DNA from: a virus
Reading direction: 5' to 3' (one strand)
IMG/VR virus record: IMGVR_UViG_3300014202_001519
DNA length: 64,000 bases
A program made the position numbers and the translations under genes. Every line of letters starts with the position of its first letter. Position 1 is the stretch's first letter. Shown piece by piece: positions 11,546-58,700 of this stretch. The notes below the pieces were generated by a model. That model had not been told where the DNA came from, ran no database searches, and saw only the letters and a program-made list of their open reading frames with translations.

Positions 11546-11957
11546 CGTTCATCTGAATAAACGCACAATTCAGAGGGACGACATGCTCCTGTGCTACAAG
11601 CATAGCCTTAACGACTGCCACAGGCAATGATAGCTCCGCAATTAAATTTGCAGAACCAATGACTTCCCTCTCAGCCTGGAGCCAAAATTCAACACCATCG
11701 CTAACAGGCCGACCAGCTTGCTCCCACTTGGAATAAGCTAATTCACTAATCCTTGCCGTACTAGCATCAATGGTTTCGCTTTTTATCTTAACCAAAATCT
11801 CTTCGGTTAAGTCTTCTGGCTTAATAGTTGCCAGTAGGTTGTTCCACCGCTTTGCAAAAGTCTTTAGCTCATCCGAGCCTTGGACCTTATCAAGCTCGGC
11901 CTTGTATGTGGTCCAAATGGAGTCATCTTCAATATGAAGATAAATCGGCAACTTCAT
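11520..11957 (-). CDS. DUF2934-domain protein
   Basis: ISELAYSKWEQAGRPVSDGVEFWLQAEREV. Confidence 0.7.
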   Translation of the reverse strand: MKLPIYLHIEDDSIWTTYKAELDKVQGSDELKTFAKRWNNLLATIKPEDLTEEILVKIKSETIDASTARISELAYSKWEQAGRPVSDGVEFWLQAEREVIGSANLIAELSLPVAVVKAMLVAQEHVVPLNCAFIQMNGGLGEFED

Positions 11958-11966
11958 CGCTGACCC

Positions 11967-12134
11967 TCAAAGATCAAAACTGGAGGCTTTAAGTCGCTCC
12001 AGAATTTGTTCCGCCTCTTCTTCACCCATGATACCAATAAGATTCATAAGAACGTCATCGGCATCCCCGCTACTCTTGCCTTCTTTGAAGAGGTTCTTAT
12101 ACTCTTCAAAGAAGGCAATTAGTTTTTCTTTCAT
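11967..12134 (-). CDS. hypothetical protein
   Basis: ATGA overlap with the PARP stop; MKEKLIAFF. Confidence 0.5.
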   Translation of the reverse strand: MKEKLIAFFEEYKNLFKEGKSSGDADDVLMNLIGIMGEEEAEQILERLKASSFDL

Positions 12135-13741: not shown

Positions 13742-13798
13742 AGTTTATTCTCGTTTCTGTTGTCAAAAGGTTGTTATTTGTTTAATCGTACATTTTGG

Positions 13799-15304
13799 TC
13801 ATACACTTAAATTAATTCTGGAATTTTGTCCTTCATTAATAATGTCCATTGCCTTGTCCTTATGGATGTGGCCCATTATCAATTCACAAGCTTCCGTAAT
13901 GCGATGCCAGGGAAGCGTTGCAATGACAAATCCTCTCTCATCCACGAAGCCAATGCTATCCTTACCATGCAAACCGCCACGTTGACGTACTGGCCTACCG
14001 TGCTTGTCTCTAACCTCAACAAAGATCGGCCTGCCTTCATTCAGGCACTGCCAGAAGATTGTATCAATGAAGAACCGAACAAAATACCGACTTCTGATAT
14101 AATCAGACATCGGTGTTAGAAATTGATACATTTCCGTCAAGAACGGCGCACTGGCATCATTAACGGTACTTGTGTATTGATACTCCTCAATCTCATACAA
14201 GAAAGGCTTGTAGTTAGTCACAATCTCAATGAGTTGTGGCGCACCAATCGTCAGGAAGTCAACCGCCCGCGCATCAACATAGTGACTCAATTCTGTTAAA
14301 AGAAGAGACAACGTATGAGCAGCATAGTGGTTAAAATCCGCTTCATCCCTTAGTTTCTGAGGGACTTCCTTTATCTTGTAATCACCCCAAATTGTGTCTC
14401 TGGACCGTTTGTTTCTTGCAATCAAACTGGTTATGATGAAGACAAGGCTGATATCTCTTTTGTCCTTCAACTCAGCTTCATCATAGCATTGCTGCCCGCT
14501 CACAGCCTTGTCAGCTAGTGCGGTGACATAGCCATAAACGTCCTTGAATTTTTCATAGTTCATTCTATCGCCCGTGAACATTTGTGTTAGTTCAGGACGA
14601 GTGAATGAAGCATAGAAATCAATGCAAGGCTTGATTGTGCTTTCTCGCTTGCCAAGTACATTAATCATGAAGAGGGCTTTAGTGTTATGTGAACTATTAG
14701 CCGCTGGTGCGAGTGGCACCATCTTCACAATATCAAGGCATGTTTTAGAAAGAGGACCAGTGAAATCCAGGCTCACAACATCATAGATGTTATTATCATG
14801 GGGAAGCATGTTCTCTAAGCGGCCAAGCTTAGCGTTAATTCCATACCGATAAGCATTATCGTGAAATTCGCTTTTGGCTGCTTCATCACCACCTTCATAG
14901 CCCACGATGTTTTGTGGCTTGAAACCTAGTTCAAGGTACATTGGGATTTCTAAGCACTTCTTGCCTGGGAGACAAAGGACTTTCATCCTTTCTCGTTCAG
15001 AGGGCAGCGTGTGCTTATTAACGAAGTCTTTCCACTTTTGTCGCCAAAGCTGCTTTGTTGGGTTATCATAATTGGCATGACAACCTTCTACAGTGTCTTC
15101 AACAGCAAGTTCTACTGGCCTTGAAACTAGCTGGGTCTTATTAGCTCTGATCTTAGTCCAAGCCGTAACCGCAGCAATTGTGGGCAGACTTACGCCAAAC
15201 TGATCCGCACAGGTTTTACGACGTTCTTTCTTCTCATCTTCATTCGCCGCTTCTTCAACGTAAGCACGAATAAATTCCTTGTCGCTCTCAGTTAGTTCTG
15301 CCAT
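13799..15304 (-). CDS. hypothetical protein with a possible N-terminal HTH and a class I methyltransferase-like fold
   Basis: CADQFGVSLPTIAAV, VLCLPGK, IVGYEG and YDVVSLDFTG. Confidence 0.45.
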   Translation of the reverse strand: MAELTESDKEFIRAYVEEAANEDEKKERRKTCADQFGVSLPTIAAVTAWTKIRANKTQLVSRPVELAVEDTVEGCHANYDNPTKQLWRQKWKDFVNKHTLPSERERMKVLCLPGKKCLEIPMYLELGFKPQNIVGYEGGDEAAKSEFHDNAYRYGINAKLGRLENMLPHDNNIYDVVSLDFTGPLSKTCLDIVKMVPLAPAANSSHNTKALFMINVLGKRESTIKPCIDFYASFTRPELTQMFTGDRMNYEKFKDVYGYVTALADKAVSGQQCYDEAELKDKRDISLVFIITSLIARNKRSRDTIWGDYKIKEVPQKLRDEADFNHYAAHTLSLLLTELSHYVDARAVDFLTIGAPQLIEIVTNYKPFLYEIEEYQYTSTVNDASAPFLTEMYQFLTPMSDYIRSRYFVRFFIDTIFWQCLNEGRPIFVEVRDKHGRPVRQRGGLHGKDSIGFVDERGFVIATLPWHRITEACELIMGHIHKDKAMDIINEGQNSRINLSV

Positions 15305-28435: not shown

Positions 28436-29294
28436 GGACTGTTTTACCTCGCATATTCCTTTTAGCGCGGTGATATTTACGGATCGGATGATCCAACGTT
28501 TTGAGTGGGTGCATTATGGATGCTTGTAAAAAATGCTGTTCCTCGTATGTGAGTTCTGGTCGGAATCTTATAGGATATTTTCGGTAGTTGCCAGCCCACA
28601 TACCAGTCATCTGATTGTAGGTAGCGAACTGCTTTATTTTGCCGCCAAAGTGTTTCACTATAGTCGGCAGGGCATGTTCTGTCAAGTCCCAAGCATCATA
28701 AAGAGGACAAAACCCTTTCTGGAAAGGGTTTGTGTAAAACAAGAACCTCTGGAAAAACTCCTTATCCAATGCCATTTTTATAAAATCTCTATGATAGAAA
28801 ATACAAGCTCCTAACAAATAAACCACCTCTTCGAACTTGCCTTGTACTACCTTTTCTAAGATAGAAAGATTAACTGTCTGTTTGTCTCGATAATCATTTC
28901 CAATGCACCACACGCCATCCTGCTCAGCTTCCTCCAGGTCTTTCTTAAAAGCAGACGATCCCACCAGACAGTCATACTCCATATAACAGAACCAGTCCGT
29001 ATCTTGCCAATGAGTTGCAGCGGTCAAAAGTCCAAGAAATATGTTCCTGTAAGGAGATTTATACCAATTGTGGTTAAATCCGCGAAGCTTATAAGCTGGT
29101 AAATTAATGCCAGTGAACGTGTCCCAAGCTACTCCGTCAACTACTACAAGAATCCTGTCAGTCATGTAGTTTCTTATGGAGTCTACCGTATCTAAAGTAA
29201 TGTCTGGAACCCCGTGGGTGTTTAAAATTGTTGTAATTTTCATAGCAATACTATAATATAATAAGAAGAGGTTAAAAAATGGAATTAGACGCAA
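28425..29294 (-). CDS. putative glycosyltransferase-like protein
   Basis: ILVVVDG and WFCYMEYDCLV (DxD-like); glycan-island context. Confidence 0.45.
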   Translation of the reverse strand: MRLIPFFNLFLLYYSIAMKITTILNTHGVPDITLDTVDSIRNYMTDRILVVVDGVAWDTFTGINLPAYKLRGFNHNWYKSPYRNIFLGLLTAATHWQDTDWFCYMEYDCLVGSSAFKKDLEEAEQDGVWCIGNDYRDKQTVNLSILEKVVQGKFEEVVYLLGACIFYHRDFIKMALDKEFFQRFLFYTNPFQKGFCPLYDAWDLTEHALPTIVKHFGGKIKQFATYNQMTGMWAGNYRKYPIRFRPELTYEEQHFLQASIMHPLKTLDHPIRKYHRAKRNMRGKTVHET

Positions 29295-30382
29295 AATTAG
29301 AAAAAATAGAAAAGACCCTTACTGACATTACGGCAAACTTAGCAAGTTTAACCGCCGTTGTTGGCCATTTAATGAATCCACCCCCTGTTGTAATTCCTCC
29401 TTTACCACCAGTTACACCACCACCACCATCGGCCCCACCACCGCCACCACCATCCGTTACGCCACCTGTTGTCGCCAAGCCAGTTGCACCAGTTGTTGAA
29501 ACTGCTAAGCCAGTTGCACCAGTTGTTGAAACTGCTCCTAAGCCAGTTACTCTTGTGCCAGAGGCTGCCCTAAAACAGCCGCCAATGGAGCTTGTCAACC
29601 TTCTAAACTCCAAAGCATGGCCACATGCTGTTGATCCCGCTCTAATTTGTGACATTAGTTCAGAACAAGACAAGGAAGATCGTGCTGAGGGCATCCTAGA
29701 TTTAATAATTGACATTCATTTGGAAAACCTAAAGTTCTTGGATTTCGGTTGTGGCGAAGGTCATGTAGTTAATAAAAGTCGAACACAAAAGCCAAGAATG
29801 TCTGTTGGTTACGATATTAAGAAAAGCGAAAAATGGGATAAGTGGGAAAAAACACCAAACATATTCTTCACAGATGACTGGAGTGCAGTCAAGAACCTTG
29901 GGCCATTCAATATTGTGTTACTATACGACGTTATTGACCATATGATACTGCCAGAACAAGAAATTGTCAAACAACTTAAAGAAATCAAGCAGTCTCTCGC
30001 CATTAATGGGAAAATATATCTAAGGGCGCATCCTTGGTGTTCTCGACACGGAACACACTTATATCATAAACTAAACAAAGCTTTCGTACACATGGTTTTC
30101 ACAGATGAAGAACTTCAAGCAATGGGATACAAACAAGAAAAAACTATAAAAATACTTACCCCCATGATAGATTACGGTAGAATATTCGCAGCCGCTGGCT
30201 GTAAGATTCATAACGGTCCCCACCAAATCCGAGAAGGCGTGGAACCTTTCTTCATCAATACGCCCATCCTGTCAGAACGTATTAAGAAAAACTATCAAAC
30301 ATGTGGACGTGAGGATTTAAGAAAAGGCAAGTTTCCAAGTGGCCCAATGGAAAACCAGTTTCTTGATTATATTTTAATATAG
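29279..30382 (+). CDS. class I SAM-dependent methyltransferase with Pro-rich N-terminus
   Basis: FLDFGCGEG and VLLYDVIDH; poly-Pro and KPVAPVVETA x2. Confidence 0.85.
   Translation: MELDAKLEKIEKTLTDITANLASLTAVVGHLMNPPPVVIPPLPPVTPPPPSAPPPPPPSVTPPVVAKPVAPVVETAKPVAPVVETAPKPVTLVPEAALKQPPMELVNLLNSKAWPHAVDPALICDISSEQDKEDRAEGILDLIIDIHLENLKFLDFGCGEGHVVNKSRTQKPRMSVGYDIKKSEKWDKWEKTPNIFFTDDWSAVKNLGPFNIVLLYDVIDHMILPEQEIVKQLKEIKQSLAINGKIYLRAHPWCSRHGTHLYHKLNKAFVHMVFTDEELQAMGYKQEKTIKILTPMIDYGRIFAAAGCKIHNGPHQIREGVEPFFINTPILSERIKKNYQTCGREDLRKGKFPSGPMENQFLDYILI
29477..29536 (+). repeat. 30-nt tandem duplication (coding)
   Basis: aagccagttgcaccagttgttgaaactgct x2. Confidence 0.9.
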
Positions 30383-30383
30383 A

Positions 30384-31310
30384 ATGATTAAAATTTCCGC
30401 CAAAACCATCAACATTTTAGTGTTGAATAATTATTCATTTAAATATCAGGACAATTATGAAAAAGTCACTGTTATGGATAAGAAAACAGACGACTATTTA
30501 TACATAGAACCGCATCGGTCAGAGAACTATGAGAATTTTGGCTTGGTAAAGTTGAAAATTTACTGTGATGACCACAATATTAAACTCATCTCTTTTGGAC
30601 ACAAAAACCAACTGCCGTTGCTCAGTATGATATCGGACGAAATCCGCCTTGTTGATTATCCTGAATACTACGATGGCATCTACGGAGGTACATATGGACT
30701 AACCTCATGGCAAAATCCCCAACAAGAAAGTTTGAATAGGGTGATAATGAAATCCAATTTAGTCACGCACATTAACAACAGTAATAAGGATAGTCGGATC
30801 AAAAAGATCAATGACGTAGACGAAGCAAGAATCAAAAACTTCCTTATGAACCAAAAGATTTATATTAGGAAAGAATCTTTTGACATATTTGAAAAAGAGA
30901 AAATCAGTCTACCAAAAGACGTTATTGTGTGTGAAATTAAGAAGTGCAAGTATCGAGACAAACTGCTGAATGAATCTAATTTTTTAGGACTTGACTACAC
31001 GTTCCAAAAATCGCTGGTCAGCCGATTCAAATACCACTACATGACGCTCCAAATATTGGCTTCTTTCTATCTCGATTGGTTTTACGTTTGTATTGGCGGC
31101 TCCGCAAACTTATTTTCTTTGCTTCCTATCAGGTGCCTGATGATGGGGGACTCCTGCTTGGAAAACAGTTATCCTATGCTGGAAAAAATATATAATGGTA
31201 TTCCTAAGTTGGTCTACAAATACAAAAATAACGAAAGTGTAGAAGAGATTGCCTCTCTACGCGACTTAGCAAGAAGAGTCAACTACAAACTTAGGGTCAC
31301 ACAGTTCTAA
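30384..31310 (+). CDS. hypothetical protein
   Basis: 308-aa AT-rich ORF. Confidence 0.5.
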   Translation: MIKISAKTINILVLNNYSFKYQDNYEKVTVMDKKTDDYLYIEPHRSENYENFGLVKLKIYCDDHNIKLISFGHKNQLPLLSMISDEIRLVDYPEYYDGIYGGTYGLTSWQNPQQESLNRVIMKSNLVTHINNSNKDSRIKKINDVDEARIKNFLMNQKIYIRKESFDIFEKEKISLPKDVIVCEIKKCKYRDKLLNESNFLGLDYTFQKSLVSRFKYHYMTLQILASFYLDWFYVCIGGSANLFSLLPIRCLMMGDSCLENSYPMLEKIYNGIPKLVYKYKNNESVEEIASLRDLARRVNYKLRVTQF

Positions 31311-32752
31311 AACACCCTCACTTTGTAATAATTTTCAAACTCATCTGCATCTAACCGACTGTTTACGATAGGCTTTCCTTTTATATTCAGGCTTGTATTT
31401 AAAAGCATAGGACAATCATACTTTTCTTTATACCTTTTCAATATTTTATAGAATTGCTCATTTTCTTCCGCTGTTACCGTCTGTATTCTGGAGGTTTTGT
31501 CAACGTGACAAATGGCACGAAACTCATCGGGAAATTTACATTTAAATGCGTATTGCATGTAGGGACTATCATTGCGATTCATAACAAAATAGTCCTTGGC
31601 TATTTCGGACATAATTGATGCCGCAAACGGCCTAAATTTCTGCCTACGCTTAATCTCATTTACTTTATCTTTCATACCTGGCAGTCGCGGATCGGCCAAC
31701 AAAGACCTATTCCCCAAGGCTCTAGGGCCAAATTCAGCACGACCACTGGCTATACCAACTATATTCCCCTTGCTTAGTTTTTGGCAAATTTCATCTATGC
31801 AAATTTCACCACTAATGTTATGGCCGAGATAAGGTCCACACCATTTTACTTTACGACCATAGAGATACGCTGCACACCCCAATGCCGTGCCAGCATCGCC
31901 AGGATTTGGCATAATCCATACATTTTTAAATATCTCCGATAAGTAATTATTGACTACACAATTTAGTGCTACACCTCCACAGTAAACCAAATTCTCTGTA
32001 ACAATTAACTTCTTTGCATGACGCATGATTCTGCAAACGGTTTCCCTGGTCACTTCCTGAATGCTTGCAGCTATATCCAAAAGGTCCGCATTCGGCAAGT
32101 AATTACCAATTCCATAATGACAAGGCTTTTTCAGAGAAAAAAATCCACTGCCGATAAAGTCCTTTTTTATTTTATCACAGTACAAAGGTTTGCCATAAGC
32201 CGCCATCCCCATTAAAATGTACTCTTCTTCATTTGGCTTCAACCCACAACGCTGTGTAAATGCCGAATATAACAGTCCAAGGGAAGAAGGGAATGAGACT
32301 CTATCTTTCAAAGACAACTTATCGCCTATACCTTCCCATATTGTAACAGTATCCCACTCCCCGACCGCATCAATAACAACAACCGTCGCTCGGTCAAAAT
32401 TGGAAGTATGGTAGCCTGATGCGGCATGAGATAAATGGTGATTAACACAAACAACCTTGGTGTTAATTCCCATGTCCTTTAAATACGACTGCGGCCAAAC
32501 ATCAGGATCAAAAGCCCTTAGAAATTGGAACGAACAGAGTTGTCGCGTTTTCTTGAGCCAAACGTTTTCATAAAATCCTATCAAATCAGGATAACCGTAG
32601 GTAAGAGCCTCCTTTACTAAGTCACAATGCAGCCATTTATCCTGCTTAATGCCAGAATACCGCTCAGCATGTGCAGCAAAAAGAATCTTCCCATCTTGTA
32701 TAACAGCAATAGCTGCGTCGTGAACCATTGCTGTTACTCCCCATATTATCAT
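31307..32752 (-). CDS. O-carbamoyltransferase (NodU/CmcH family)
   Basis: HDAAIA, HHLSHAAS, GGVALNC, GDAGTALG, EFGPRALGNRS, FRPFA and LLNTSLN. Confidence 0.95.
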   Translation of the reverse strand: MIIWGVTAMVHDAAIAVIQDGKILFAAHAERYSGIKQDKWLHCDLVKEALTYGYPDLIGFYENVWLKKTRQLCSFQFLRAFDPDVWPQSYLKDMGINTKVVCVNHHLSHAASGYHTSNFDRATVVVIDAVGEWDTVTIWEGIGDKLSLKDRVSFPSSLGLLYSAFTQRCGLKPNEEEYILMGMAAYGKPLYCDKIKKDFIGSGFFSLKKPCHYGIGNYLPNADLLDIAASIQEVTRETVCRIMRHAKKLIVTENLVYCGGVALNCVVNNYLSEIFKNVWIMPNPGDAGTALGCAAYLYGRKVKWCGPYLGHNISGEICIDEICQKLSKGNIVGIASGRAEFGPRALGNRSLLADPRLPGMKDKVNEIKRRQKFRPFAASIMSEIAKDYFVMNRNDSPYMQYAFKCKFPDEFRAICHVDKTSRIQTVTAEENEQFYKILKRYKEKYDCPMLLNTSLNIKGKPIVNSRLDADEFENYYKVRVF

Positions 32753-33648
32753 TCTAACTCCTGATATATGCTAGATTTAGTAAAACTGTCCAAAAATGCG
32801 TCTATTGTGAACTTGGTTTTATCCATGCTTTTAAGATAAAGATGACCTTCTTCGATCTTATTCAGTTTATTTGCTGCGTCATTCAAATCAGAGTAGAACA
32901 GTGGATAATCGTCCCCAAGATATTCCACAGCGGCGGGCAGTTTATTAATAAGAATGGGTGTATTTCTGATAATGCACTCTAAAACAACGTTGCAGGCGGC
33001 AAGGTCATACATATCCAGAAAAACCGCTGAGGATGTCAATAAATCATCGTATGCATCATTGTTTAGGTAATCCATAAAATTTACCTTACGGCATTGAGAA
33101 TACTGTATCATTTCATCGTAATCTTCTTTAAAACCAGCGGTCTTTAGTAAAACTTTTTCCATAGTCGTAGGCAATTCACAAATGCTGTGGTAGCGTCTGA
33201 GCCATTGACCAACCGTAACAACCCTTGATTTATAGTTATGCATAAGAAAATTCTTACGAACTGGTAATACCGAATGCACTAATGATATTACATTTTTTTT
33301 AGTGTATTTTCTTAGGAAGCTAGCTGTGTGTTCACTTAGAGTAAATATGCCTTTACAATGTTTTAACGATTTGAGAAAGTGAGGTTGTTGTACCAGCCTG
33401 TTGAGCGGATAGATTCGGCCTGAATATTTTCTTTGATACTCTGTTGGATAACGAATTACGTTGTGAAAAATGCCAAGCCAAGGATGCTCAATTGAATTAT
33501 TATTATTGAAAACTTTGTCGGCCCAATCATATAATGTTATACCGTTGGCACTAAATAAGTTATGGTATAAAGCTTTAGAAATAGGCTCCCATCCTGACCG
33601 ATGGTGAGCAAATGTGGTCGGCCTAATGTAAATTTTCCGTGAAAACAT
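32749..33648 (-). CDS. glycosyltransferase-like protein (GT-B-like C-terminus)
   Basis: HRSGW; VFLDMYDLAACNVVLECIIRNTPILINKLPAAVEYLG. Confidence 0.55.
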   Translation of the reverse strand: MFSRKIYIRPTTFAHHRSGWEPISKALYHNLFSANGITLYDWADKVFNNNNSIEHPWLGIFHNVIRYPTEYQRKYSGRIYPLNRLVQQPHFLKSLKHCKGIFTLSEHTASFLRKYTKKNVISLVHSVLPVRKNFLMHNYKSRVVTVGQWLRRYHSICELPTTMEKVLLKTAGFKEDYDEMIQYSQCRKVNFMDYLNNDAYDDLLTSSAVFLDMYDLAACNVVLECIIRNTPILINKLPAAVEYLGDDYPLFYSDLNDAANKLNKIEEGHLYLKSMDKTKFTIDAFLDSFTKSSIYQELE

Positions 33649-34240
33649 GATCTACTCCGAAAAATATAAGTTTATCTATTTTTCAATACCTAAAACTGGA
33701 TCAACCACTATATCTAGTATCTTAATAAAGGATTACAAGGCTGTCGCTCATTATGATAGGCATGACAACCGAATCCCGCTCCACGCAAAAGATTACTTTA
33801 AGTTTAGCACTGTCCGCAACCCTTATGAACGTGCAATTTCTGGTTACACTCACGTCACTAGCAAACTTAATGTAAATGTGCCAGAGGTTTTCGAGCATTT
33901 TCACCTTATCTCCATGACAGACTATCTAACGCAAGAACTAGCCATCGAAAAATGGGCCACCGCCCACGATAATTATAAAAATATGATGACTAAGCGACGA
34001 GGGCCAGGAATAAATATCCACCTTTTGAGGCTTGAGAACCTTGAAACCGATTTTTCAAAACTATATTTTGTAAAGAATAAAATTAAACTAGATAAGCAAA
34101 ATGCCACAACTATGTTTCCATCGAAGCAAATTATGGATCAAATAGTAAAATATGTAAAAGTTAACTATAGGAAGGATTTTGAGAACTTTGGATACGACAT
34201 CAATATTAATCCCTATCGGAAAACACCACTATTTTGTTGA
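33647..34240 (+). CDS. sulfotransferase family 2 protein
   Basis: IPKTGSTT (5'-PSB), VRNPYERAIS and LRLENL. Confidence 0.85.
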   Translation: MIYSEKYKFIYFSIPKTGSTTISSILIKDYKAVAHYDRHDNRIPLHAKDYFKFSTVRNPYERAISGYTHVTSKLNVNVPEVFEHFHLISMTDYLTQELAIEKWATAHDNYKNMMTKRRGPGINIHLLRLENLETDFSKLYFVKNKIKLDKQNATTMFPSKQIMDQIVKYVKVNYRKDFENFGYDININPYRKTPLFC

Positions 34241-35177
34241 ACTGTGTAGTAAAAACATTTTAGATACCGCAGGGGATATAAACATAATATTCTTAACGAC
34301 CAAGGATATTCCAGAAAAACTTGAACATGCTCTAAAAGGTAAACAACACCTTAGATGCCCATATAACTTCAAAGACTACAAATTCACCCACCTGCACCTC
34401 TTAGATTGGGCATTTTATCACGGCGATTTACCTGACCGCCTCTATGTTCAACATGCTGACGTAATGTGGGTCGATAAAGGTTGGTTGACCGCTATTCAAA
34501 ATTTTGAAAATAAGACAGCCTGTGTTCTACCGTATGCGACTTCAGCAAGTGACTTCCAACATATTCAACACAAATTCATGTTTCATGGTAAAAAAATTCT
34601 AAGAACACATGATTTTGCAGCGGTCTATAATCGTAGCAATTTTGTCGAAAATAAGCTTACCTTCTCAGCAGGTAATGTCGGATTGGATTTTCCAATATCA
34701 GATAAACTTAAGTTTGAAATCATACGCAATAACTTCAGTTGGATTGTAACCAACCGCGCCGTTCAACTAGGGGATATGTTTGACGGCTCCGACGCAATTG
34801 CCTTAGAAATTTATGCCAACTGTCCGACTCAAATTGCTGAAATTCCCATGTCTCAAAAATTGATTCATTGCTGGGACTTATTTGCAATATCCAAAGACAT
34901 GCGAAGAGAAGGAACTACTCTTTTTATAGATCGTCCACTGAAAAGGTGTGAAAGAGCCTTGGCTAGTTATTCTTGGGTGAGCAGTCAACTTTTCGATCCC
35001 GAAGAGGTAATATTTCCCTGGAAACACTTGCGAGCTATATGGCCGAATATCAGCGAGCCGAGATTCTGCAAAATCTTGGAAAAATACATACAGAAAAGAG
35101 ATATCAACAATGCTTTCGGAATAAAAAAAATAGTATTCGATGACTTTGTTTACAAGTGCCCTGTAAGTCTAATCTAA
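34179..35177 (+). CDS. hypothetical protein, possibly GT-A-like
   Basis: YVQHADVMW; island context; start uncertain. Confidence 0.45.
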   Translation: MRTLDTTSILIPIGKHHYFVELCSKNILDTAGDINIIFLTTKDIPEKLEHALKGKQHLRCPYNFKDYKFTHLHLLDWAFYHGDLPDRLYVQHADVMWVDKGWLTAIQNFENKTACVLPYATSASDFQHIQHKFMFHGKKILRTHDFAAVYNRSNFVENKLTFSAGNVGLDFPISDKLKFEIIRNNFSWIVTNRAVQLGDMFDGSDAIALEIYANCPTQIAEIPMSQKLIHCWDLFAISKDMRREGTTLFIDRPLKRCERALASYSWVSSQLFDPEEVIFPWKHLRAIWPNISEPRFCKILEKYIQKRDINNAFGIKKIVFDDFVYKCPVSLI

Positions 35178-35256
35178 CGGATAAACTTCATCATTCTTCT
35201 GATTTCTTCTTCGCATGAACATTATCTTAATGTTATAGATTATTAGCTTTATTATT

Positions 35257-36006
35257 TCAATTAGCTTTCTCATAAATCTCTTTATACTTGTTAATTAAAA
35301 TCTTACCGAAATTCAGGTTTGTTTGAACGCCTGGGTGTCCCCCATCTCTTGCTAGGTCAACTTTTTCTATCGAAGCAACCTTCTTACTAATATCAAGACC
35401 TAGAAAGTTAAATATATCCTCATCATGCTTCCTAATACTAAACAGCCACTTAATGCTGTAAATCTTACATAAACATTCTACTAATTTGAAAGTCTTGTAT
35501 AAATTAGCGGCATCCTGATAATCACTGGTAAGGTCCAGTAAGCTTTTATGTATCTTATTTCCTACTAGACAATTACTGCGACTGTCGGGACGGAAATCGT
35601 GTCTACGACATTCTGCATCAAAAAATTCTCTACGGCAAAATGATGGAAAAGCAACCAGAAGAACATTGGGTTGGAGGGAAGGGATCACAGTGCTAAGAAT
35701 CCTGCCTACATAATCAACAGACTCGCCAGGCCACCCCATATTCCAATCCGCTGCATTAAACTTAGAACAAAATACAGCACTGAATCTTTTGTCGGCTGGT
35801 ATCCCATTGCCAAAAACGACACTACATCCTATCGTCAATACATTCATCTCCAACCTTGTAAATTCATCACTCCTATAGCCGTAATTATTAAACTTGTAAC
35901 TTATTGGGTAATTGTATGCCCTTTTCGGATCACTGTCCGTGCTGAATGCATTTAGTGTGGCATTAACATACTTGGTCTTTGGTATGCCAGTAAATAATTC
36001 TTTCAT
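35257..36006 (-). CDS. SGNH-like hydrolase/acyltransferase-like protein
   Basis: TIGCSVVFG, NMGWPG and DGGHPG. Confidence 0.6.
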   Translation of the reverse strand: MKELFTGIPKTKYVNATLNAFSTDSDPKRAYNYPISYKFNNYGYRSDEFTRLEMNVLTIGCSVVFGNGIPADKRFSAVFCSKFNAADWNMGWPGESVDYVGRILSTVIPSLQPNVLLVAFPSFCRREFFDAECRRHDFRPDSRSNCLVGNKIHKSLLDLTSDYQDAANLYKTFKLVECLCKIYSIKWLFSIRKHDEDIFNFLGLDISKKVASIEKVDLARDGGHPGVQTNLNFGKILINKYKEIYEKAN

Positions 36007-36689
36007 AGCCTCTTATCCATGTTAAACTTATGCCACGCTCTTGTATCCCCGCGATTTAAACCGCAAAAATGACAGCCGTGGGTAAAATCTGGTAAAATCC
36101 CGTCCCTTTTGCATATGGCTATTTCCGTGGTAAAAATACAAATTTTTTCACCATTAAACCTTGAGAAAATAGCCGCTACTAATCCTTGTTCATCAAAGTA
36201 ATCATTCCAGGGTTTAATCGCCGCTTCAATTTTTGTTTTAAAATCGAAGTTGGGCGGGATTCCGATGATACCACTGTTGAGAAATTTACGCAGAGAGACA
36301 TGATATTTATAATTACCATAAAGTCCAAATAAGCCCTCCGTATAAATAACTGAGTTAGACGATAAAAACTGATTGATTTTATCTAATTTTTTGAACAAAA
36401 TCAAATCATTGTCAATAAAAAGTTCGTGTGATTCTATTCTTAGTCTTGGAGGGTAGAGTTTCCACGCCACTCCACTTGGCGGGTAAGATAAACTAGCTGG
36501 GTCTTGTTCTATAAAGATTACGTCATACTTCTCCAAATAATTTAATTCTTTTCGCTGGATCGAATTATAGCAAACGAAATAATCGAAAGTATCTCCGTAT
36601 AAATTTTTAATTAACTTGATAGACAAATCTAAGCTTTTGTGCCCGTATTGGTGAACTCTGCCGACAGTCCAACGAATAAGTGGTTTCAT
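36003..36689 (-). CDS. putative glycosyltransferase
   Basis: LFIDNDL, LNSGIIG and DEQGL. Confidence 0.55.
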   Translation of the reverse strand: MKPLIRWTVGRVHQYGHKSLDLSIKLIKNLYGDTFDYFVCYNSIQRKELNYLEKYDVIFIEQDPASLSYPPSGVAWKLYPPRLRIESHELFIDNDLILFKKLDKINQFLSSNSVIYTEGLFGLYGNYKYHVSLRKFLNSGIIGIPPNFDFKTKIEAAIKPWNDYFDEQGLVAAIFSRFNGEKICIFTTEIAICKRDGILPDFTHGCHFCGLNRGDTRAWHKFNMDKRL

Positions 36690-36690
36690 T

Positions 36691-37401
36691 TTATATATTT
36701 AGTATTTCCCTACCAACTCTATTGATGTTCTGGAATATTTTGCACTTGAAATCCACCTGCACAAGTGGATGATGATTGAAATAAAACTGCTTGTAGTAAA
36801 TTTGCTCAGAAAAAACATGCTTTGTTTGAAAAGTGTAGTTTTTAATTTCAGTTATTTTAGATTTTATGAAGTCGGTTTTAGCAATCCAAAGTCCAGCATT
36901 AAGAAAGGGAAACAAGGAATCACCTGCTGCCCGTTTTTCAAATTCAATTATGGTCCCTGACAAATCTATTGGCCATATATTCTTCTCACCATTAAAAATC
37001 ATTTCACAATTAAAATCTCTAAAATCATCTATAATGCCTTCCAAACCCCTCACCAATAGCACGTCCGAAGAATCACTCGACAGTATATACTCAGTTTTTA
37101 AGTCCTGAAGAAATAGTTCTAGCAAAGGTATCTTCAGCTTATTAATCCATGATGTAATCCCTTTGCCCAAAACATGGAAATTGTCTATCCCTGCACGAAG
37201 CAATGACTGCTCAAATGTGCCATTAGTTTTGCCGTTATAACCTAGTGGACCATTATTATAGGTAACAATTGTAAGATCGCATGGACACACTGTTTTGAAT
37301 TGAAAATCTATAGACTTAATTGACTGCCAGAGTGGTAAGAATTGCGGACGACCAGAAGCATGTGTAAACCTTGGGTGGGTGTTATATATGAGGTTTATCA
37401 T
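36691..37401 (-). CDS. PLOD/procollagen-type glycosyltransferase domain protein
   Basis: SSDSSDVL, FNGEKNIWP, FLNAGLWI, SEQIYY and DFKCKIFQN. Confidence 0.7.
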   Translation of the reverse strand: MINLIYNTHPRFTHASGRPQFLPLWQSIKSIDFQFKTVCPCDLTIVTYNNGPLGYNGKTNGTFEQSLLRAGIDNFHVLGKGITSWINKLKIPLLELFLQDLKTEYILSSDSSDVLLVRGLEGIIDDFRDFNCEMIFNGEKNIWPIDLSGTIIEFEKRAAGDSLFPFLNAGLWIAKTDFIKSKITEIKNYTFQTKHVFSEQIYYKQFYFNHHPLVQVDFKCKIFQNINRVGREILNI

Positions 37402-38177
37402 ATCATCTTAATTAGTAGGCTTTTTAAATTTTTCTCCAATGTCTTTGTCGCTGGATGTGTCATCTTAAATATTCTTTTATTAGAAAAATTTGCTTTGTAA
37501 ATAGCATCGGTTGGGTCGAGTTTAACCCCCAAAAAGTCGGACACGTTTGCCAATACATACTCTGTAGAGTGTATCAAATCCTCGTAGGAAACGCTGAGAA
37601 AATCAACATTGCCTAGAAAATTATTCCAAATGGCACGGTACAAACACGCATCCTTCCAACACTGCATCAAAAGGGCAGCATCGGCTTCGACGTTAGACTG
37701 CGTATAATTGGATAAAGAGGTTTCATCGTAGATATGGTACTTCTTCGTTTGTCTGGCAACATAAATTGATATTGCATGAGCTACTTCATCATTTCTATAT
37801 AAATGGATAAATTTAATATCTGGCAGTAATGATTTTACATACTTTTGGTCATATTTCTTAACAGCCCAATCGTATTTCTCCAATTCATAAAAATCTGCAT
37901 AAAATCCAGGTCGATAACGATTGGCATTTGGAATCGCCGCTATAACTTCAATGTATTGATGATAGATAACTTTACAGTACGGCGGGACAAATCGCTCGAA
38001 CTCGATTCGATTGTTAAACAATCTTAACCACTCATTGAACGCAAGTCCTTGCTGAATTGGTCCTTTCTTATCACTTAAAAGAGGATGGTTGTATGCTTTA
38101 AACAAACCACTATTATTCAAGAGTTCGCAAAGATAACTAGAGCCAGTCCTGGGAGTACATAAAATCCAACATGTCAT
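37398..38177 (-). CDS. Stf0-family sulfotransferase
   Basis: PRTGSSYLCELL, FIHLYR..VAHAIS and VSYEDL. Confidence 0.82.
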   Translation of the reverse strand: MTCWILCTPRTGSSYLCELLNNSGLFKAYNHPLLSDKKGPIQQGLAFNEWLRLFNNRIEFERFVPPYCKVIYHQYIEVIAAIPNANRYRPGFYADFYELEKYDWAVKKYDQKYVKSLLPDIKFIHLYRNDEVAHAISIYVARQTKKYHIYDETSLSNYTQSNVEADAALLMQCWKDACLYRAIWNNFLGNVDFLSVSYEDLIHSTEYVLANVSDFLGVKLDPTDAIYKANFSNKRIFKMTHPATKTLEKNLKSLLIKMI

Positions 38178-39013
38178 AAAATGGACCTACAATACTCGGT
38201 TAAAGATTTTTGAGGACGCCAATTGAGCATTTCGACAGTCTTATTTATATCAGCCAAGGTGTCGCGTGCTTCCCCTGGACGCGCAGGAATGTATTGAACT
38301 TCTGAATTATTGAACATTTTAGCAACCTCATTCAAAGAATAGTTAATGCCACTGCCCAAATTAAATACTTCACCTTTCCACTCCGCTTCCGACATGGCAA
38401 TTAAGCCACTGACTATATCATCAACATGAGTAAAATCCCGCCGCTGTTCCCCGTCACCAGTAATTGTTAAAGGCTGCTTGTTATGATACTGCCGCTCCCA
38501 AATACCAATGACAGTAGAATAATCACCTTCCCCAATCTGTCTCGGCCCATAAACGTTGAAAAACCTTGCAATCGCCGTAGGGACACCATAGATGTGACTA
38601 TACAGTTTGCAACATTCTTCCCCAGCGTGCTTGAAGAAAGCGTAAGGATTCAGATATATGCCACCGTAGAATGTACTGGACCCAGCGTAAACAATTTTGG
38701 ACCTGTGGCGTCTGGCAAATTCTAACATCACCATCGTACCAGTGGAATTTGCCAGATAAGTTTCAAAAGGTTGTTCGAAGCTAGGTTGTATCCTTGCCAG
38801 TGCCGCCAGGTGGAAAATTATATCTACCTTCTCAACTGGAACGTGCGGCAATTTTTCTACCTTCCCTTCCAAGAACGTTGCTTTAGGATTGAGATTCTCC
38901 ATCTTTCCAGTAGAAAGGTTGTCGAGTACATAAACAGTGTGGTCTTGATCTATAAGTCTGTCCACTAGATGACTACCAATAAATCCACCACCGCCAGTCA
39001 CAAGTATATTCAT
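38174..39013 (-). CDS. NAD-dependent epimerase/dehydratase
   Basis: TGGGGFIGSHL, HLAA, YAFFK (YxxxK), RFFNVYGP and RDFTHVDD. Confidence 0.93.
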   Translation of the reverse strand: MNILVTGGGGFIGSHLVDRLIDQDHTVYVLDNLSTGKMENLNPKATFLEGKVEKLPHVPVEKVDIIFHLAALARIQPSFEQPFETYLANSTGTMVMLEFARRHRSKIVYAGSSTFYGGIYLNPYAFFKHAGEECCKLYSHIYGVPTAIARFFNVYGPRQIGEGDYSTVIGIWERQYHNKQPLTITGDGEQRRDFTHVDDIVSGLIAMSEAEWKGEVFNLGSGINYSLNEVAKMFNNSEVQYIPARPGEARDTLADINKTVEMLNWRPQKSLTEYCRSIL

Positions 39014-39069
39014 AATTTGCCCATAAATATTATAATAACAACATGGAAAATATTGCACTATATTAATCC

Positions 39070-40002
39070 ATGAACATCCTAGTAGTTCCAACAATCAGAG
39101 AGAATTGCCTTAAAAACTTCTTACATGCTTGGAGATTTGAAGTTTTTGATAAGATAGTTGTTGTAGAGGATAATCCAACTATAACCTTTCATACAGACTC
39201 CGTATACCACTTTTCATGGCAAGAAATAGAAGAGGAATGGGGAGAGAACAGTTGGATATTTTCAAGACGAGATAGTGCTATTCGTTCATTTGGCTTCTGG
39301 AAAGCCTACCAACTAGGTGCCGAAGTCATTTACACCCTGGACGACGACTGCTATCCAATACCAGATGAAGCCTATCTTCATACCCACCTATTTAACCTGG
39401 AAGAAACCTGTAAATGGGGGGAATTGATCGTTGGTCTAAGAACCAGAGGACTTCCCTACTACAACATGGGCACACTACCAGTCGTCGCCAATGTAGGATT
39501 ATGGACAAATATTCCAGACCTGGATGCTATTAATCAGATTGCTAATCCAATTATAGACTTTCAACCAGATGTAAAAGAGAACAGGGTAATGCCACATGGC
39601 CAATACTTCCCATTTACTGGCATGAACTTCTGTTTCAAAAGGGAAGTTGCGGTAATGGCCTACTTCCCTTTAATGGGAGAAGGTCAACCTTATAGAAGGT
39701 TTGATGATATCTGGTTCGGCATTATATTCAAGAAGGTGTGTGACCACTTAGGTTATCATATTACGGTGGGGCATCCCTTTGTAGAGCATCGTAAAGCGAG
39801 TCACCCATTGGTCAATTTGGTCAAGGAAGCTCCTGGCATCCAAGCAAATGAGACTTTTTGGGAAGTGGTCGATAAGATCAAGCTGACCTGTAAAACCCCC
39901 AAGGATTGCATGTTTGAGATTGGTGAAGGGTTATACAATGAAAATGATGCTTATGTTAAGAAGTTGGGGCAGGCCGTGACGATTTGGGCTGAACGGTTTT
40001 AA
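39070..40002 (+). CDS. reversibly glycosylated polypeptide (RGP)/UDP-arabinopyranose mutase family
   Basis: SAIRSFG, TLDDDC, RGLPY, GLWTNIPDLDA, GMNFCF, YFPLMGEGQP.RRFDDIW, CDHLG and HRKAS.PLVNL. Confidence 0.85.
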   Translation: MNILVVPTIRENCLKNFLHAWRFEVFDKIVVVEDNPTITFHTDSVYHFSWQEIEEEWGENSWIFSRRDSAIRSFGFWKAYQLGAEVIYTLDDDCYPIPDEAYLHTHLFNLEETCKWGELIVGLRTRGLPYYNMGTLPVVANVGLWTNIPDLDAINQIANPIIDFQPDVKENRVMPHGQYFPFTGMNFCFKREVAVMAYFPLMGEGQPYRRFDDIWFGIIFKKVCDHLGYHITVGHPFVEHRKASHPLVNLVKEAPGIQANETFWEVVDKIKLTCKTPKDCMFEIGEGLYNENDAYVKKLGQAVTIWAERF

Positions 40003-46252: not shown

Positions 46253-47010
46253 CTTTTCTCCGCTGTCTCACAGTGTTCTTTAGATATATCACAGCATATG
46301 TATTTTCGATTATGCTTCTTCGCCGCCACCGCAGTAGTCCCACTACCGCAAAACGGATCAACTATTATATCACCTTCATCCGTAGAAATCAAAACCAACC
46401 ATTCAGTAAACGTAAGTCCTTTGATGGTAGGGTGATAGATGTTGTTGACTTTCTGGAAAACTGAATTTTCACTCGACCACGGGTATTCTTCCCCAAACCA
46501 ACAAGACGGCAACCTTGTCTTATACTCTGGAACAGGTTTGCGACCCTTATTAGGGATTACACCTGCCTTTTTGTTCTTAATTAACTTAGTCTGCCTAAAC
46601 CTAAATCTACCTTTATGAGCAAACATTATCCAGTCACTATTAGTCTGGAACGTTCCATATAAGTCGGTCTTGCCAGAAGCTCGTTTCTGGCAAATAATTG
46701 GCTCTTTCATAGCGAACCCAACACTTTCAATTTCCTTGTAATGGAGCGGATATTCGCTCCAGCCAGTGAAAGCGAAAAGTGCGGAGTCAGGACGCAGTAT
46801 ACGGTAGGCTTCCTTAGCCCAATCCGTATAATCAAAATGCACGGCATCGTTTTCGATCTTGCCGTGCATTTTATGAGTGAAATTGTTTTGGTAGTTTATA
46901 CCAAATGGTGGATCAGTTATTATTGCTGCTATTGATCCATCAGGTATTTTAGAAAGCAATTCTTTATAATCACAACACACAAGTTCCGATGTAATATTGT
47001 TCATATACAA
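46240..47010 (-). CDS. orphan N6-adenine/N4-cytosine DNA methyltransferase (beta class)
   Basis: ITDPPFG, HPTIK and VDPFCGSGTT. Confidence 0.92.
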   Translation of the reverse strand: MYMNNITSELVCCDYKELLSKIPDGSIAAIITDPPFGINYQNNFTHKMHGKIENDAVHFDYTDWAKEAYRILRPDSALFAFTGWSEYPLHYKEIESVGFAMKEPIICQKRASGKTDLYGTFQTNSDWIMFAHKGRFRFRQTKLIKNKKAGVIPNKGRKPVPEYKTRLPSCWFGEEYPWSSENSVFQKVNNIYHPTIKGLTFTEWLVLISTDEGDIIVDPFCGSGTTAVAAKKHNRKYICCDISKEHCETAEKRCIN

Positions 47011-47143
47011 GCACAGTCATTCCAATACTAGGAACATAAAACTCACCCTCGCCTTTACATATAGGGTGAAACCATCCTTCATCAGTCAAAATCCTACCCA
47101 TTTTATGGGGATCACGATTGTCTAATACTTGTTTTAATTTCAT
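46970..47143 (-). CDS. 57-aa mini-protein resembling the gp5/gpV OB-fold N-terminus (not in ORF track)
   Basis: Manual translation MKLKQVLDNRDPHKMGRILTDEGWFHPICKGEGEFYVPSIGMTVLVYEQYYIGTCVL; ATGA-coupled to the upstream gene. Confidence 0.55.
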   Translation of the reverse strand: MKLKQVLDNRDPHKMGRILTDEGWFHPICKGEGEFYVPSIGMTVLVYEQYYIGTCVL

Positions 47144-47736
47144 GGTTTTCCTTTAATCTTCAACAACATATTCAATTGCCATTTCAATACATCCCCTTTC
47201 TTTACCCATACGCCCTGCTTGCCAGCAGACATAATATCACCGCTACGTTGAACGCTCATATGACTGCCACCTGGATAGTAGTTGTTAATGATACTCATAA
47301 GGCTGTATTCGCCAACCTTGTGTTTTAACAAAGGAATCTTGCAGCCATGCTTGAACTTAACTACTGCCTGCTCGACCATCTGGTTCATGTCTTCTTCGTA
47401 CAAACTATGCATGTTTAGATGGTAATAAGCGTAAATCTTGTCTTCAGCAAAGAACAAATCGCCACGATATAGGTTCATTAAAGGCAATTTGATACTATCG
47501 CCAGCCTGCACAAATTCTGCCGCCCTATCATCTGTAGCCCAAATAATAGGCACTTTATGAGCTTTGCCTTCTTCATCTAAAACCACTGTATCCCTAAATT
47601 CTTTCATTGTCGCTTCATCACAACGACGAAAGAACCTGGAATATCTAAATTTTGGTTCCTCGGCCTTAATGAGATTACCAAGGCCAAAGACGCTCAAGGA
47701 TGCCGCCAACGCCTTCATGAAAAATCTACGATCCAT
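47140..47736 (-). CDS. twin-arginine-like leader fused to a T4 gp15 (tail terminator)-like region
   Basis: MDRRFFMKALAAS..., KVPIIWA, IKLPLMNL and YEEDMNQMVEQ. Confidence 0.55.
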   Translation of the reverse strand: MDRRFFMKALAASLSVFGLGNLIKAEEPKFRYSRFFRRCDEATMKEFRDTVVLDEEGKAHKVPIIWATDDRAAEFVQAGDSIKLPLMNLYRGDLFFAEDKIYAYYHLNMHSLYEEDMNQMVEQAVVKFKHGCKIPLLKHKVGEYSLMSIINNYYPGGSHMSVQRSGDIMSAGKQGVWVKKGDVLKWQLNMLLKIKGKP

Positions 47737-53047: not shown

Positions 53048-53194
53048 TTATGACAATAACCACAACGATAAGTGGTCATACCCTTTTGGGCAGCTTCTTC
53101 CTCAGAATCAAATCCCACCTTCCTATCACAAGCTCTATGCTTCCGATAGGCTTTGGCGGCTTGTCTGGAAAATTGCTTGTACTTATTCATGGAG

Positions 53195-53266
53195 TGGGCC
53201 TGCCTGGATTCGAACCAGGAACCAAGGTTTTATGAGAACCCTGCTCTGCCGTTGAGCTACAGGCCC
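53195..53266 (-). tRNA. tRNA(CAT), probably Ile2 (lysidine-modified)
   Basis: GGGCCTG-TA-GCTC AACGGCA GAGC-A-GGGTT CTCATAA AACCT-TGGTT-CCTGG TTCGAAT CCAGG-CAGGCCC-A; C4:G69 and C5:G68 match TilS determinants. Confidence 0.88.
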
Positions 53267-57223: not shown

Positions 57224-57404
57224 TGATTTTGTCCGTGATAGTGGTTAAGTGGGTTGTGCAGTGGTCGCATATGTTCAGTCTATGCCACTGAATTATGCCT
57301 TTGGATATCGTGCTAATTTGTAGCCCGATCCATCCATTAGTATAATAACCGAATTGATCTTCACTTAACTCCGATGTTTTCGAGCAAATTGAACAATTAA
57401 TCAT
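57210..57404 (-). CDS. zinc-binding hypothetical protein
   Basis: CSIC...ICDHC. Confidence 0.45.
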   Translation of the reverse strand: MINCSICSKTSELSEDQFGYYTNGWIGLQISTISKGIIQWHRLNICDHCTTHLTTITDKINGKS

Positions 57405-57629
57405 TGGTTGTCCCGTAGGCAGGATTCTGTTTTATGCTATCATTTGTCTATTGGCACCGACCATACCCGTTGTGCTGCTCACCCACTGAGTATATTTGGC
57501 TTGCTCCCTCCGTAGTTCAAACGATACTTGCGGCTTTCGCCGCTTTCTCTCCTACGTTAAGCAGTGGAGTCCCGACCTTCCTCACATCCCTTGCGGGGTA
57601 GTGCGATAGCTCAGACAACCAATGATTAA
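57397..57629 (-). ncRNA. rnpB: RNase P RNA (compact, reduced specificity domain)
   Basis: 16-bp P1 (57614-57629 with 57397-57412), P2 GCTATC/GATAGC, GAGGAAGGTCGGGACTCC (CR-I), GGAGCAAG..CAAATA, and AAAACAGAATCCTGCCTAC (CR-V/P4). Confidence 0.88.
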
Positions 57630-58339
57630 ATTGCATCCAGATACTGTGTCCAATATATCAAGTTCTCATTACCTTCCGTGACCAATTGCTTGCCATCCAT
57701 TTCATAAAGCGACGACGCACCCTTCCAATCGCTATTCAGCAAAGTAAACTTCCGACGAATATGACCCAACATAATCGTCGCCTTAGCCAACATGATGTTC
57801 TTAAAGACTTCCTTGCCCATGCCGCCACAATTAAGAACATCAAGACCCTTGGATTTGGCTATGTCGTCAAACAAAACCTTAGTTTCGTTATAACAAGCCT
57901 CAAGCTGCTGAGGGTCCAACTCAATCTGTAGGACTGGTGCGCCAAGCATCAGCAGTGTGTGGTCAATAGACAACTGTTTGTCAGGAGCTTCAAACGGCGT
58001 GTTATCCCTTATAAGTTGCTGTGCTTCTATAAGTGGTGGTTGTGTCCCATCCAAAGAGAAAACTTCAATTTTGGTTTCTTGGTTACGAACAGGAACAATG
58101 ATTAGCTCCCAATCGTCAAGAGCCTTTCTTATATCCTGCTTATGCCATCTTTCCTTCATTCGATCAATGAACGCCTCGGCCTTATAAGGTGGAAGCTGGC
58201 CAACGTTCAAGGTAAGGCAAATAAATCCCCTGGACCTCTTTGGTACAATTGCAATATCGCCTTTGGCGACTTGGGCGACGGCACCCAGGCCAAGAAAACC
58301 AGCGATCCAGGCCATGAAGCCTCTACGATTCTTGTCCAT
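57626..58339 (-). CDS. twin-arginine-like leader + portal (gp20)-like segment + neck (gp13)-like segment
   Basis: NRRGFM..., LNVGQLPPYKAEAFIDRMK, MLGAPVLQIEL and LGHIRRKF...DGKQLVTEG. Confidence 0.6.
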   Translation of the reverse strand: MDKNRRGFMAWIAGFLGLGAVAQVAKGDIAIVPKRSRGFICLTLNVGQLPPYKAEAFIDRMKERWHKQDIRKALDDWELIIVPVRNQETKIEVFSLDGTQPPLIEAQQLIRDNTPFEAPDKQLSIDHTLLMLGAPVLQIELDPQQLEACYNETKVLFDDIAKSKGLDVLNCGGMGKEVFKNIMLAKATIMLGHIRRKFTLLNSDWKGASSLYEMDGKQLVTEGNENLIYWTQYLDAI

Positions 58340-58700
58340 CGCTTGCTCCTAGATATTGCTGTTCACTTTCGTCATAGACAGCCAATTGGAACCTAGTATT
58401 GCCCTCTGGTGTCTTATGAGGGTCAATTACTACATGGAATGGAAATCGCTTTTTGAAAAGTAATACACAATCTTGAAAGTCTTGTGTATTAAGGATGACA
58501 TTGGCGGTGGCGAATCCGAATCCACACCATTTGGCAGCTTCTGCAAATCTATCCGTTGTGGTGAACAAAGGCAATATCGTTTTTCCGCCCAATTCTAAAA
58601 AAATGGGATTATTATTGGCGGGGTTAATTGGAAGCAACATACCCCTTATTTGATATTGGATGACTTTTTCTGTAACCTTTTTCATTCTGGTTGCGCCCAA
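58323..58700 (-). CDS. hypothetical protein (SseB-like)
   Basis: ILPLFTT..RF...VVIDP. Confidence 0.4.
   Translation of the reverse strand: MGATRMKKVTEKVIQYQIRGMLLPINPANNNPIFLELGGKTILPLFTTTDRFAEAAKWCGFGFATANVILNTQDFQDCVLLFKKRFPFHVVIDPHKTPEGNTRFQLAVYDESEQQYLGASDGQES

Follow-up and report, generated by a model that had tools for sequence, protein, structure and literature searches.

Why would a huge T4-like phage keep, away from its structural genes, a small gene that joins pieces of its portal and neck proteins behind what looks like an export signal? This question is raised by P0001, an open reading frame (ORF) of 237 amino acids (aa) in IMG/VR virus record IMGVR_UViG_3300014202_001519, of which we analysed a stretch of 64,000 nucleotides (nt), hereafter the window. 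Its domain composition is near certain: a predicted twin-arginine-type (Tat) leader is followed by a domain like the clip of the T4 portal protein gp20 and by a four-helix bundle like the core of the T4 neck protein gp13, and the combined evidence for these three parts is far beyond chance. A role outside the virion is also near certain. As a tentative reading, held with somewhat less than even confidence, we propose that mature P0001 may be a Tat-exported or envelope-associated mini-connector that acts with a similarly tagged mini-gp15 outside virion assembly. A preliminary description of this locus had seen a Tat-like leader, a portal-like middle and a gp13-like end, and had judged the protein too small for a functional portal. 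All of the sequence strings it quoted are found in P0001, and its parts stood up to analysis: the middle proved to be the whole clip domain and the end domain I of gp13, and a protein of 237 aa with a clip only is indeed too small to serve as a portal.

Gene, start site and family of P0001

The gene and its parts, all on the minus strand, are arranged as follows.

58346-58350, minus strand: strong Shine-Dalgarno sequence AGGAG, 6 nt 5' of the ATG at 58339 (read from the sequence)
57626-58339, minus strand: P0001, 237-aa ORF comprising leader, portal-clip-like domain and gp13 domain-I-like bundle, with its TAA stop at 57626-57628
58259-58339, minus strand: residues 1-27, putative Tat-type signal with MDKNRRGFM, the hydrophobic region (h-region) AWIAGFLGLGAVAQVA and then KG (assigned by conservation and by sub-threshold Pfam TAT_signal matches in relatives)
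58229-58258, minus strand: residues 28-37, linker of 0-25 aa in homologs, with low model confidence
58037-58228, minus strand: residues 38-101, domain resembling the portal clip, built of a strand, a helix and two further strands, with motifs NVGQLPPYKAEAFIDRMK and PVRNQETKIEV, approximately T4 gp20 283-356
57992-58036, minus strand: residues 102-116, short helix and linker joining the clip and bundle modules (from the model)
57629-57991, minus strand: residues 117-237, four-helix bundle like gp13 domain I, corresponding to gp13 3-51 plus 239-300

The public gene call places the start at Met9, which gives a protein of 229 aa. Because residues 1-8 (MDKNRRGF) are kept in the alignment of homologs of 31-66% identity, the 237-aa frame is preferred. 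A word-indexed search returned 19 homologs with identities of 31-100%, several of them from contigs of 590-595 kb, which therefore belong to huge phages. Among 50,697 phage records the sole match was LR756511.1, a 595-kb uncultured phage, whose ortholog matches the P0001 profile at E = 2e-85. An alignment of 18 members shows conserved blocks in the leader and at NVGQLPPFKAEAF, PVR.QETK, LMLGAPV.KIELD..QL, LA.A.IMLGHIR.K and DG..L..EG. An exhaustive HMMER search covering 1.84 billion cluster representatives extended the family to 782 proteins at E <= 1e-3, of which 208 reach E <= 1e-10 and 39 reach E <= 1e-30, all counts being of representatives.

P0001 itself returned nothing useful from scans of Pfam (a set without PF26809), PHROGs and NCBIfam. 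Its AlphaFold model has a pLDDT of 73.7, and searches with the whole model yielded only noise of the glutathione S-transferase/thioredoxin type from the PDB (Foldseek) and a weak mixture of neck and portal matches from BFVD, none at E <= 1e-3.

A portal clip without the rest of the portal

For the portal-like middle segment, the comparison that decided the matter was with LR756511.1. Positions 40-72 of the P0001-family profile match an 859-aa frame of that genome (E = 1.6e-12), which is its own Pfam Portal_T4 protein (E = 1e-74), and the similarity is collinear across P0001 residues 38-97, with CFYVDVGQLPPYKAEAFMDRIKEQFRK...DIWIPIRPQSNTRIDTLPG in the portal corresponding to ICLTLNVGQLPPYKAEAFIDRMKERWHK...WELIIVPVRNQETKIEVFSLDG in P0001 and approximately 18 aa deleted. 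The most conserved part is the clip tip block, which is identical to the corresponding block of the LR756511.1 portal at 18 of 30 residues (60%) and similar at 87%. Pfam Portal_T4 (PF07230) matches 13 of 53 family members with a best E of 3e-7, the matched part being only profile positions ~204-236 of 433. When the single sequence of T4 gp20 was used in hhalign, region 283-356 was picked at E = 0.11, which is not significant; significance for the clip thus came only from LR756511.1's own portal and from Portal_T4 on family members.

Judged by these alignments, P0001 residues 38-101 are homologous to the T4-type portal clip domain. In T4, gp20 279-358 forms the clip domain, which consists of three strands and helix alpha6, is exposed outside the capsid and docks the terminase gp17 and gp13, with N291, M292, R295 and K296 as tip residues (PMC4493910); R295, K296 and R339 touch acidic residues of gp13 (PMC12929587). 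The family alignment shows little or no variation at K53 and R85 of P0001, the equivalents of gp20 K296 and R339. P0001 shares with T4-type portals (PF07230) both the clip layout and the terminase- and gp13-contacting tip motif G-x-[LM]-P-x-x-K-A, whereas it lacks the wing, stem, crown and tunnel loop of gp20 (~500 aa or more), and in its clip the ~18-aa loop that joins alpha6 to the following strand is deleted.

The portal of LR756511.1 (L012; 531017-533593, minus strand) appears from its sequence to contain an intein-like insertion at approximately residues 101-333 (CVAGDTLIS...VMHNC), and a cluster that combines an intein with Portal_T4 is among its neighbours in the ESM Atlas.

A gp13 domain I drawn from both ends of the adaptor

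Among PDB sequences, the family profile found T4 gp13 at E = 8e-4 through two collinear stretches, in which family positions 123-159 align with gp13 9-45 and positions 171-231 with gp13 237-296. With hhalign, the family matched T4 gp13 at a probability of 82%, and superposition by VIA-align of residues 117-237 of the AlphaFold model on gp13 from the 2026 structures of the T4 portal and neck (9lu6_A) gave a Z of 13.4 and a root-mean-square deviation of 2.7 Å over 105 residues, the next unrelated match reaching a Z of 7.9. Profile positions 120-163 and 180-232 also match both ends of a 304-aa ORF of LR756511.1 (E = 1e-10 and 6e-6), itself a match to the PHROG head-tail adaptor Ad2 (E = 6e-13). 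The precomputed match to PF26809 (Phage_T4_gp13) is faint for P0001 and weak in three relatives. Residues 117-237 are gp13 domain I, composed of the N- and C-terminal helices of gp13.

In T4 gp13, domain I is a four-helix bundle of residues 3-51 plus 239-300, interrupted by the swing domain II (52-192) and the fibritin-binding domain III (190-239); the gp14-binding adaptor loop is at 266-279 and the C-terminal arm, which binds the portal, at 301-308, and the swing domain, domain III and C-arm regions contact capsid, fibritin or portal (PMC12929587). In P0001 just ~15 residues lie between the helices that in gp13 flank domains II and III, both of which are absent, with ~190 gp13 residues deleted. 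P0001 also ends 3-4 residues past the alpha6-equivalent helix, and since the protein stops directly after this last helix, the portal-binding C-arm is absent; the gp13-like ORF of LR756511.1 runs ~15 residues further. The loop at the adaptor-loop position ends in a conserved DG, is of variable length and is modelled with low confidence. Sequence searches brought up no gp14 homolog, and T4 gp14 compared against the family showed no similarity. P0001 has in common with T4 gp13 (Ad2; PF26809; PDB 9lu4/9lu6/9mkb) domain I and the motifs LGAPV.KIELD..QL and [IL]DG..L..EG, and differs from it in that a predicted signal peptide and a portal clip are joined to the bundle and the gene lies away from neck genes.

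A Tat-type leader conserved in pattern

The leader was characterised in 53 diverged leader-bearing cluster representatives, which follow one pattern: RR-x-F-[MFIL], then an uncharged run, then a small-x-small site. The arginine pair is present in ~52 of the 53 despite highly diverse h-regions, 31 have F at +2, and 51 have the small-x-small site; the median uncharged run is 16 aa long, with a mean Kyte-Doolittle value of 1.6. The twin arginine of P0001 lies in NRRGFM, and its candidate signal-peptidase sites are AVA/Q or AKG/D; a moderately hydrophobic h-region (~12-20 aa) followed by a small-x-small c-region, as in Tat signals, is found across the 53-member set.

The P0001 leader thus resembles bacterial Tat signals (S/T-R-R-x-F-L-K; PF10518, TIGR01409) in its twin arginine, its F at +2, its moderate h-region and its A-x-A-like c-region; unlike the usual Tat signals, it sits on a phage connector-derived protein and falls under the Pfam and NCBIfam cut-offs. 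By its residue pattern it fits the Tat consensus rather than a Sec or transmembrane-anchor pattern, and the predicted h-region is too short and too rich in Gly and Ala for a typical stable transmembrane anchor. Export of P0001 via Tat is, from these features, likely.

Leaders of this type also stand on much shorter clip proteins of ~85 aa, which we refer to as mini-paralogs.

LR756511.1 410484-410744, minus strand: mini-paralog with Tat-type leader, first clip strand and helix alpha6 only (RRVWYVDISNLP..AEDFI..LK)
L005 1677-1934, plus strand: mini-paralog of the same design

The 86-aa mini-paralog of LR756511.1 has a canonical SRRNFLK, a TAT_signal match under the cut-off (E = 0.0056) and a Portal_T4 match (E = 9e-4), and T4 gp20 used as query finds one ~85-aa leader-clip mini-paralog at E = 0.0065. 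Two further ORFs of LR756511.1 with RR-type leaders, at 129141-129599 (minus strand; MERRGFMFSVLAFLGAG...) and 157861-158208 (minus strand; MDRRSFLGVATVGLIPL...), gave no Pfam match and have no detectable structural paralog.

A similarly tagged and trimmed gp15

A regex scan of the window for RR leaders identified only one other true RR-leader ORF, located ~10 kb from P0001 and coupled to a small downstream frame.

47140-47736, minus strand: mini-gp15, 198 aa, a Tat-type leader (MDRRFFMKALAASLSVFGLGNLIKA/EEP) followed by a trimmed core of gp15, the tail terminator/sheath stabiliser
46970-47143, minus strand: 57-aa ORF whose start overlaps the mini-gp15 stop (ATGA), translationally coupled

Mini-gp15 matches T4 gp15 in blastp at E = 3e-4 with the core motifs VPI.YA, LP..... 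and YE.DM.Q..EQ present, and its homologs carry PF16724 and conserve the leader. Its profile matches the canonical 351-aa gp15-like ORF of LR756511.1 at E = 4e-46, and mini-gp15 has neither the internal insertion of the canonical form nor its C-terminal tail. In LR756511.1 the leader-tagged short gp15 copy is situated 6 kb from the clip-gp13 fusion gene, one 32-kb contig holds both families, and the two co-occur in every relative whose contig allowed comparison. That P0001 and mini-gp15 are tagged and trimmed alike suggests a non-virion use of connector parts. The 57-aa ORF, which has a counterpart of 60% identity at the same position in relative L049 and a weak match to the gp5/VgrG OB-domain Phage_base_V (E = 0.078), is possibly a partner.

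Canonical genes and genomic context

The portal and neck paralogs were compared in LR756511.1, the sole relative available as a whole genome (595 kb). In this genome the portal, gp13-like (304 aa) and gp15-like (351 aa) genes are canonical and stand apart in a T4-like module, where the gp13-like gene adjoins the gp15-like gene. Portal and gp13 of the ordinary kind are thus present in the lineage, and P0001 is an extra chimeric paralog. Its neighbours are small hypothetical and auxiliary metabolic genes, including those for an NTP-transferase, SAICAR synthase and PTH2, and in the window and four relatives alike the family gene lies in non-structural surroundings with no head or neck module in any. 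The separate canonical genes and these contexts bear out the earlier suggestion that P0001 is not an ordinary virion gene.

Modular architectures among relatives

Architecture classes were assigned for the top 158 of the 782 cluster representatives; regex tallies for the leader and clip-only counts (28, 13 and 41) were corrected by eye for missed leaders, and permuted forms were counted by eye. Leader, clip and bundle occur together in ~32 of the 158, leader and clip in ~19, the clip only in ~35 and the bundle only in 45, with ~5 permuted forms (bundle helices first, clip last) and 15 with other N-terminal extensions. Within this set the leader accompanies the clip N-terminus and is almost never found on bundle-only proteins. 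The permuted representatives (P0020, P0055, P0066, P0070 and P0078) have the gp13-like LMLGAPV helix first and the clip-like block at the C-terminus, an order that suggests repeated, independent fusions of two modules. For the N-terminal extensions of leaderless relatives, Pfam gave no clue. At least one bundle-only gene is close to a terminase-like ORF, so that its product is probably a real small adaptor. The idea that a leader-clip protein might export an adjacent bundle-only partner as a hitchhiker was rejected, as no such adjacency was found in a 586-kb phage.

Proposed mechanism and rival explanations

In the mechanism that we tentatively propose, covalent fusion would replace the lost C-arm, so that clip and bundle would pack together as the portal clip and adaptor do at the junction in the virion. 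The resulting mini-connector subunit would be self-contained and may oligomerise into a ring. P0001 would fold or assemble in the cytoplasm before export, which would account for a Tat rather than a Sec signal, and the host Tat system would then carry it across to the membrane's periplasmic face, where it would act at the envelope jointly with mini-gp15. Its role there is a guess, namely envelope-level interference with, or exclusion of, phage components or DNA crossing the envelope. T4 encodes the superinfection-exclusion proteins Spackle (Sp) and Imm, which reside in the envelope or periplasm and act on components of the incoming phage. Their likeness to P0001 is a functional analogy only, to which it may be added that gene sp also lies in a non-structural region; Sp and Imm have no sequence or fold relation to P0001 and are not known to derive from virion proteins. 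A more elaborate version, in which an exported trimmed connector set (the clip-adaptor fusion, mini-gp15 and possibly the 57-aa ORF) would form a connector-like ring or channel in the envelope, seems to us improbable. If true, such a virion-less neck could trap or conduct an incoming phage's DNA or tail components, or could help the phage's own genome through a slow entry or exit.

Several observations weigh against an exported mini-connector. No periplasmic target is known for a clip or adaptor mimic. P0001 has no match to TAT_signal (PF10518) or NCBIfam TIGR01409, and PF10518 matches just 3 of the 53 leader-bearing members (best E = 9.5e-4), all under the 22.7-bit cut-off; the missing above-cut-off match is weak evidence, since models of short motifs are insensitive. 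A search of the LR756511.1 genome found no TatA or TatC genes, and the predicted export would therefore depend on host Tat. Some clip-bundle relatives are leaderless or have other N-terminal domains, from which the module is apparently able to work in the cytoplasm. Finally, the isolated N-domain model (pLDDT 75.5), which has a strand-helix-strand-strand fold, reached a best Z of only 4.8 (DinI, MIF-like) against 48,161 PDB chains, and because it has no significant match there, the clip assignment rests on sequence.

A doubtful reading, though one to be taken seriously, is that P0001 is instead a cytoplasmic binder or decoy of a connector partner (the large terminase, gp13/gp14/gp15 or finished tails) or of a host portal sensor, serving to regulate the phage's own assembly, to sabotage a competitor or to blunt a defence, with the leader's part limited to tethering the protein to the membrane or TatBC, or to disposing of it. 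Clip-bundle proteins without a leader, clip-only proteins and N-extended forms occur commonly, conservation is highest in the clip tip, to which terminase and gp13 dock in T4, and other small window ORFs have weak matches to gp23 and gp5-type domains, all of which accord with a binder or decoy. The near-invariant RR leader in the 53 members and in the gp15 family, in contrast, indicates that targeting matters, and some bundle-only matches resemble genuine small adaptors near a terminase gene and so lend a decoy no support. The preliminary description had favoured an exported or membrane-tethered decoy, and a decoy role is possible; its particular proposals fare less well. Known portal sensors such as Avs are cytoplasmic and the export signal is conserved, so that titration of host portal or capsid sensors fits poorly, and blocking the assembly of a superinfecting phage would likewise take place in the cytoplasm.

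We consider it unlikely that P0001 is a membrane-anchored platform, in which an uncleaved leader would hold a clip/adaptor ring at the inner membrane and nucleate or hold the portal or prohead, in a way functionally analogous to the membrane-based assembly of the T4 portal with gp40/YidC assistance. The T4 portal does assemble at the inner membrane despite lacking transmembrane segments (PMC4493910). The head-vertex assembly chaperone gp40 is a small protein tied to portal and membrane, and its gene too is located among non-structural genes; the P0001 leader runs into a flexible linker. Yet arginines N-terminal of the hydrophobic run predict an N-in/C-out orientation that would leave the domains on the wrong side, the h-region is short (~16 aa), P0001 lacks the C-arm by which gp13 docks on the portal, and gp40 has no detectable similarity to P0001 and no Tat-like leader. 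That P0001 is a genuine minor component of the virion or neck, its hydrophobic N-terminus being a propeptide or assembly handle, is quite unlikely: both modules are connector-derived, a loop at the place of the gp14-binding adaptor loop is kept and huge phages scatter structural genes, but LR756511.1 has its canonical gp13-like and gp15-like genes elsewhere, P0001 has lost the parts that bind capsid, fibritin and portal, the neighbours are non-structural in all contexts, and the leader follows the Tat consensus and not a T4-type capsid-targeting or protease-site peptide. Least probable by far is that P0001 is a leftover of structural-gene duplication, retained without function in a bloated genome; huge genomes are rich in paralogs and P0001 has no assigned function, but its frame is intact, its motifs are kept at 31-66% identity in at least 18 homologs, the family numbers hundreds of cluster representatives, and the leader design recurs in a second family.

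Other features of the window

The remaining features recorded in the window are listed below, with strand where assigned.

57400-57622, minus strand: RNase P RNA class A match of 223 nt, starting 4 nt past the P0001 stop codon
48234-48596, minus strand: 120-aa ORF with CxxC zinc-ribbon motifs
4097-4170, minus strand: tRNA with anticodon CTA (ARAGORN; labelled Pyl, amber-suppressor type)
53194-53266, minus strand: tRNA-Met (ARAGORN)
6198-7211: ADP-ribosylglycohydrolase-like gene
9849-10970: ATP-dependent DNA ligase gene
31307-32752: Nol-like carbamoyltransferase gene

The RNase P RNA match spans the full model (1-367) at 67.8 bits against a gathering score of 100 (E = 1.6e-20), and looks from its sequence like a strongly reduced phage-encoded RNase P RNA. 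The 120-aa ORF has a sub-threshold Gp23 match (E = 1.3e-4, 21.9 bits against a cut-off of 24.4, profile positions 312-348) and may be a further small protein bearing a virion-protein fragment. With regard to the CTA-anticodon tRNA, P0001 ends in TAA, so no recoding is needed. The regions 6198-15304 and 29279-40002 hold auxiliary genes of huge-phage type, and the C-terminus of a 536-aa window protein matches a PHROG labelled polymerase.

Significance for huge-phage biology

The component domains of P0001 belong to known families. In the literature searched, we found no description of Tat-tagged connector paralogs; the architecture of Tat signal, portal clip and adaptor core is undescribed there, as are its mini-gp15 companion and the many small proteins that consist of a clip only. 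The prevailing view treats portals, adaptors and tail terminators as parts of the virion and nothing else. In the present case a huge-phage lineage keeps extra copies of such proteins, minimised to the ring-forming cores, tagged with Tat-type signals and encoded away from the structural genes, and metagenomes contain hundreds of small relatives, whether clip-only, bundle-only or fused. If these proteins are cytoplasmic, they would be candidates for regulating packaging, neck assembly or portal-sensing immunity, or for acting as decoys in these processes. If they are exported, they would constitute a new class of connector-derived, envelope-acting phage proteins, for which superinfection exclusion and the control of DNA traffic are the candidate functions.

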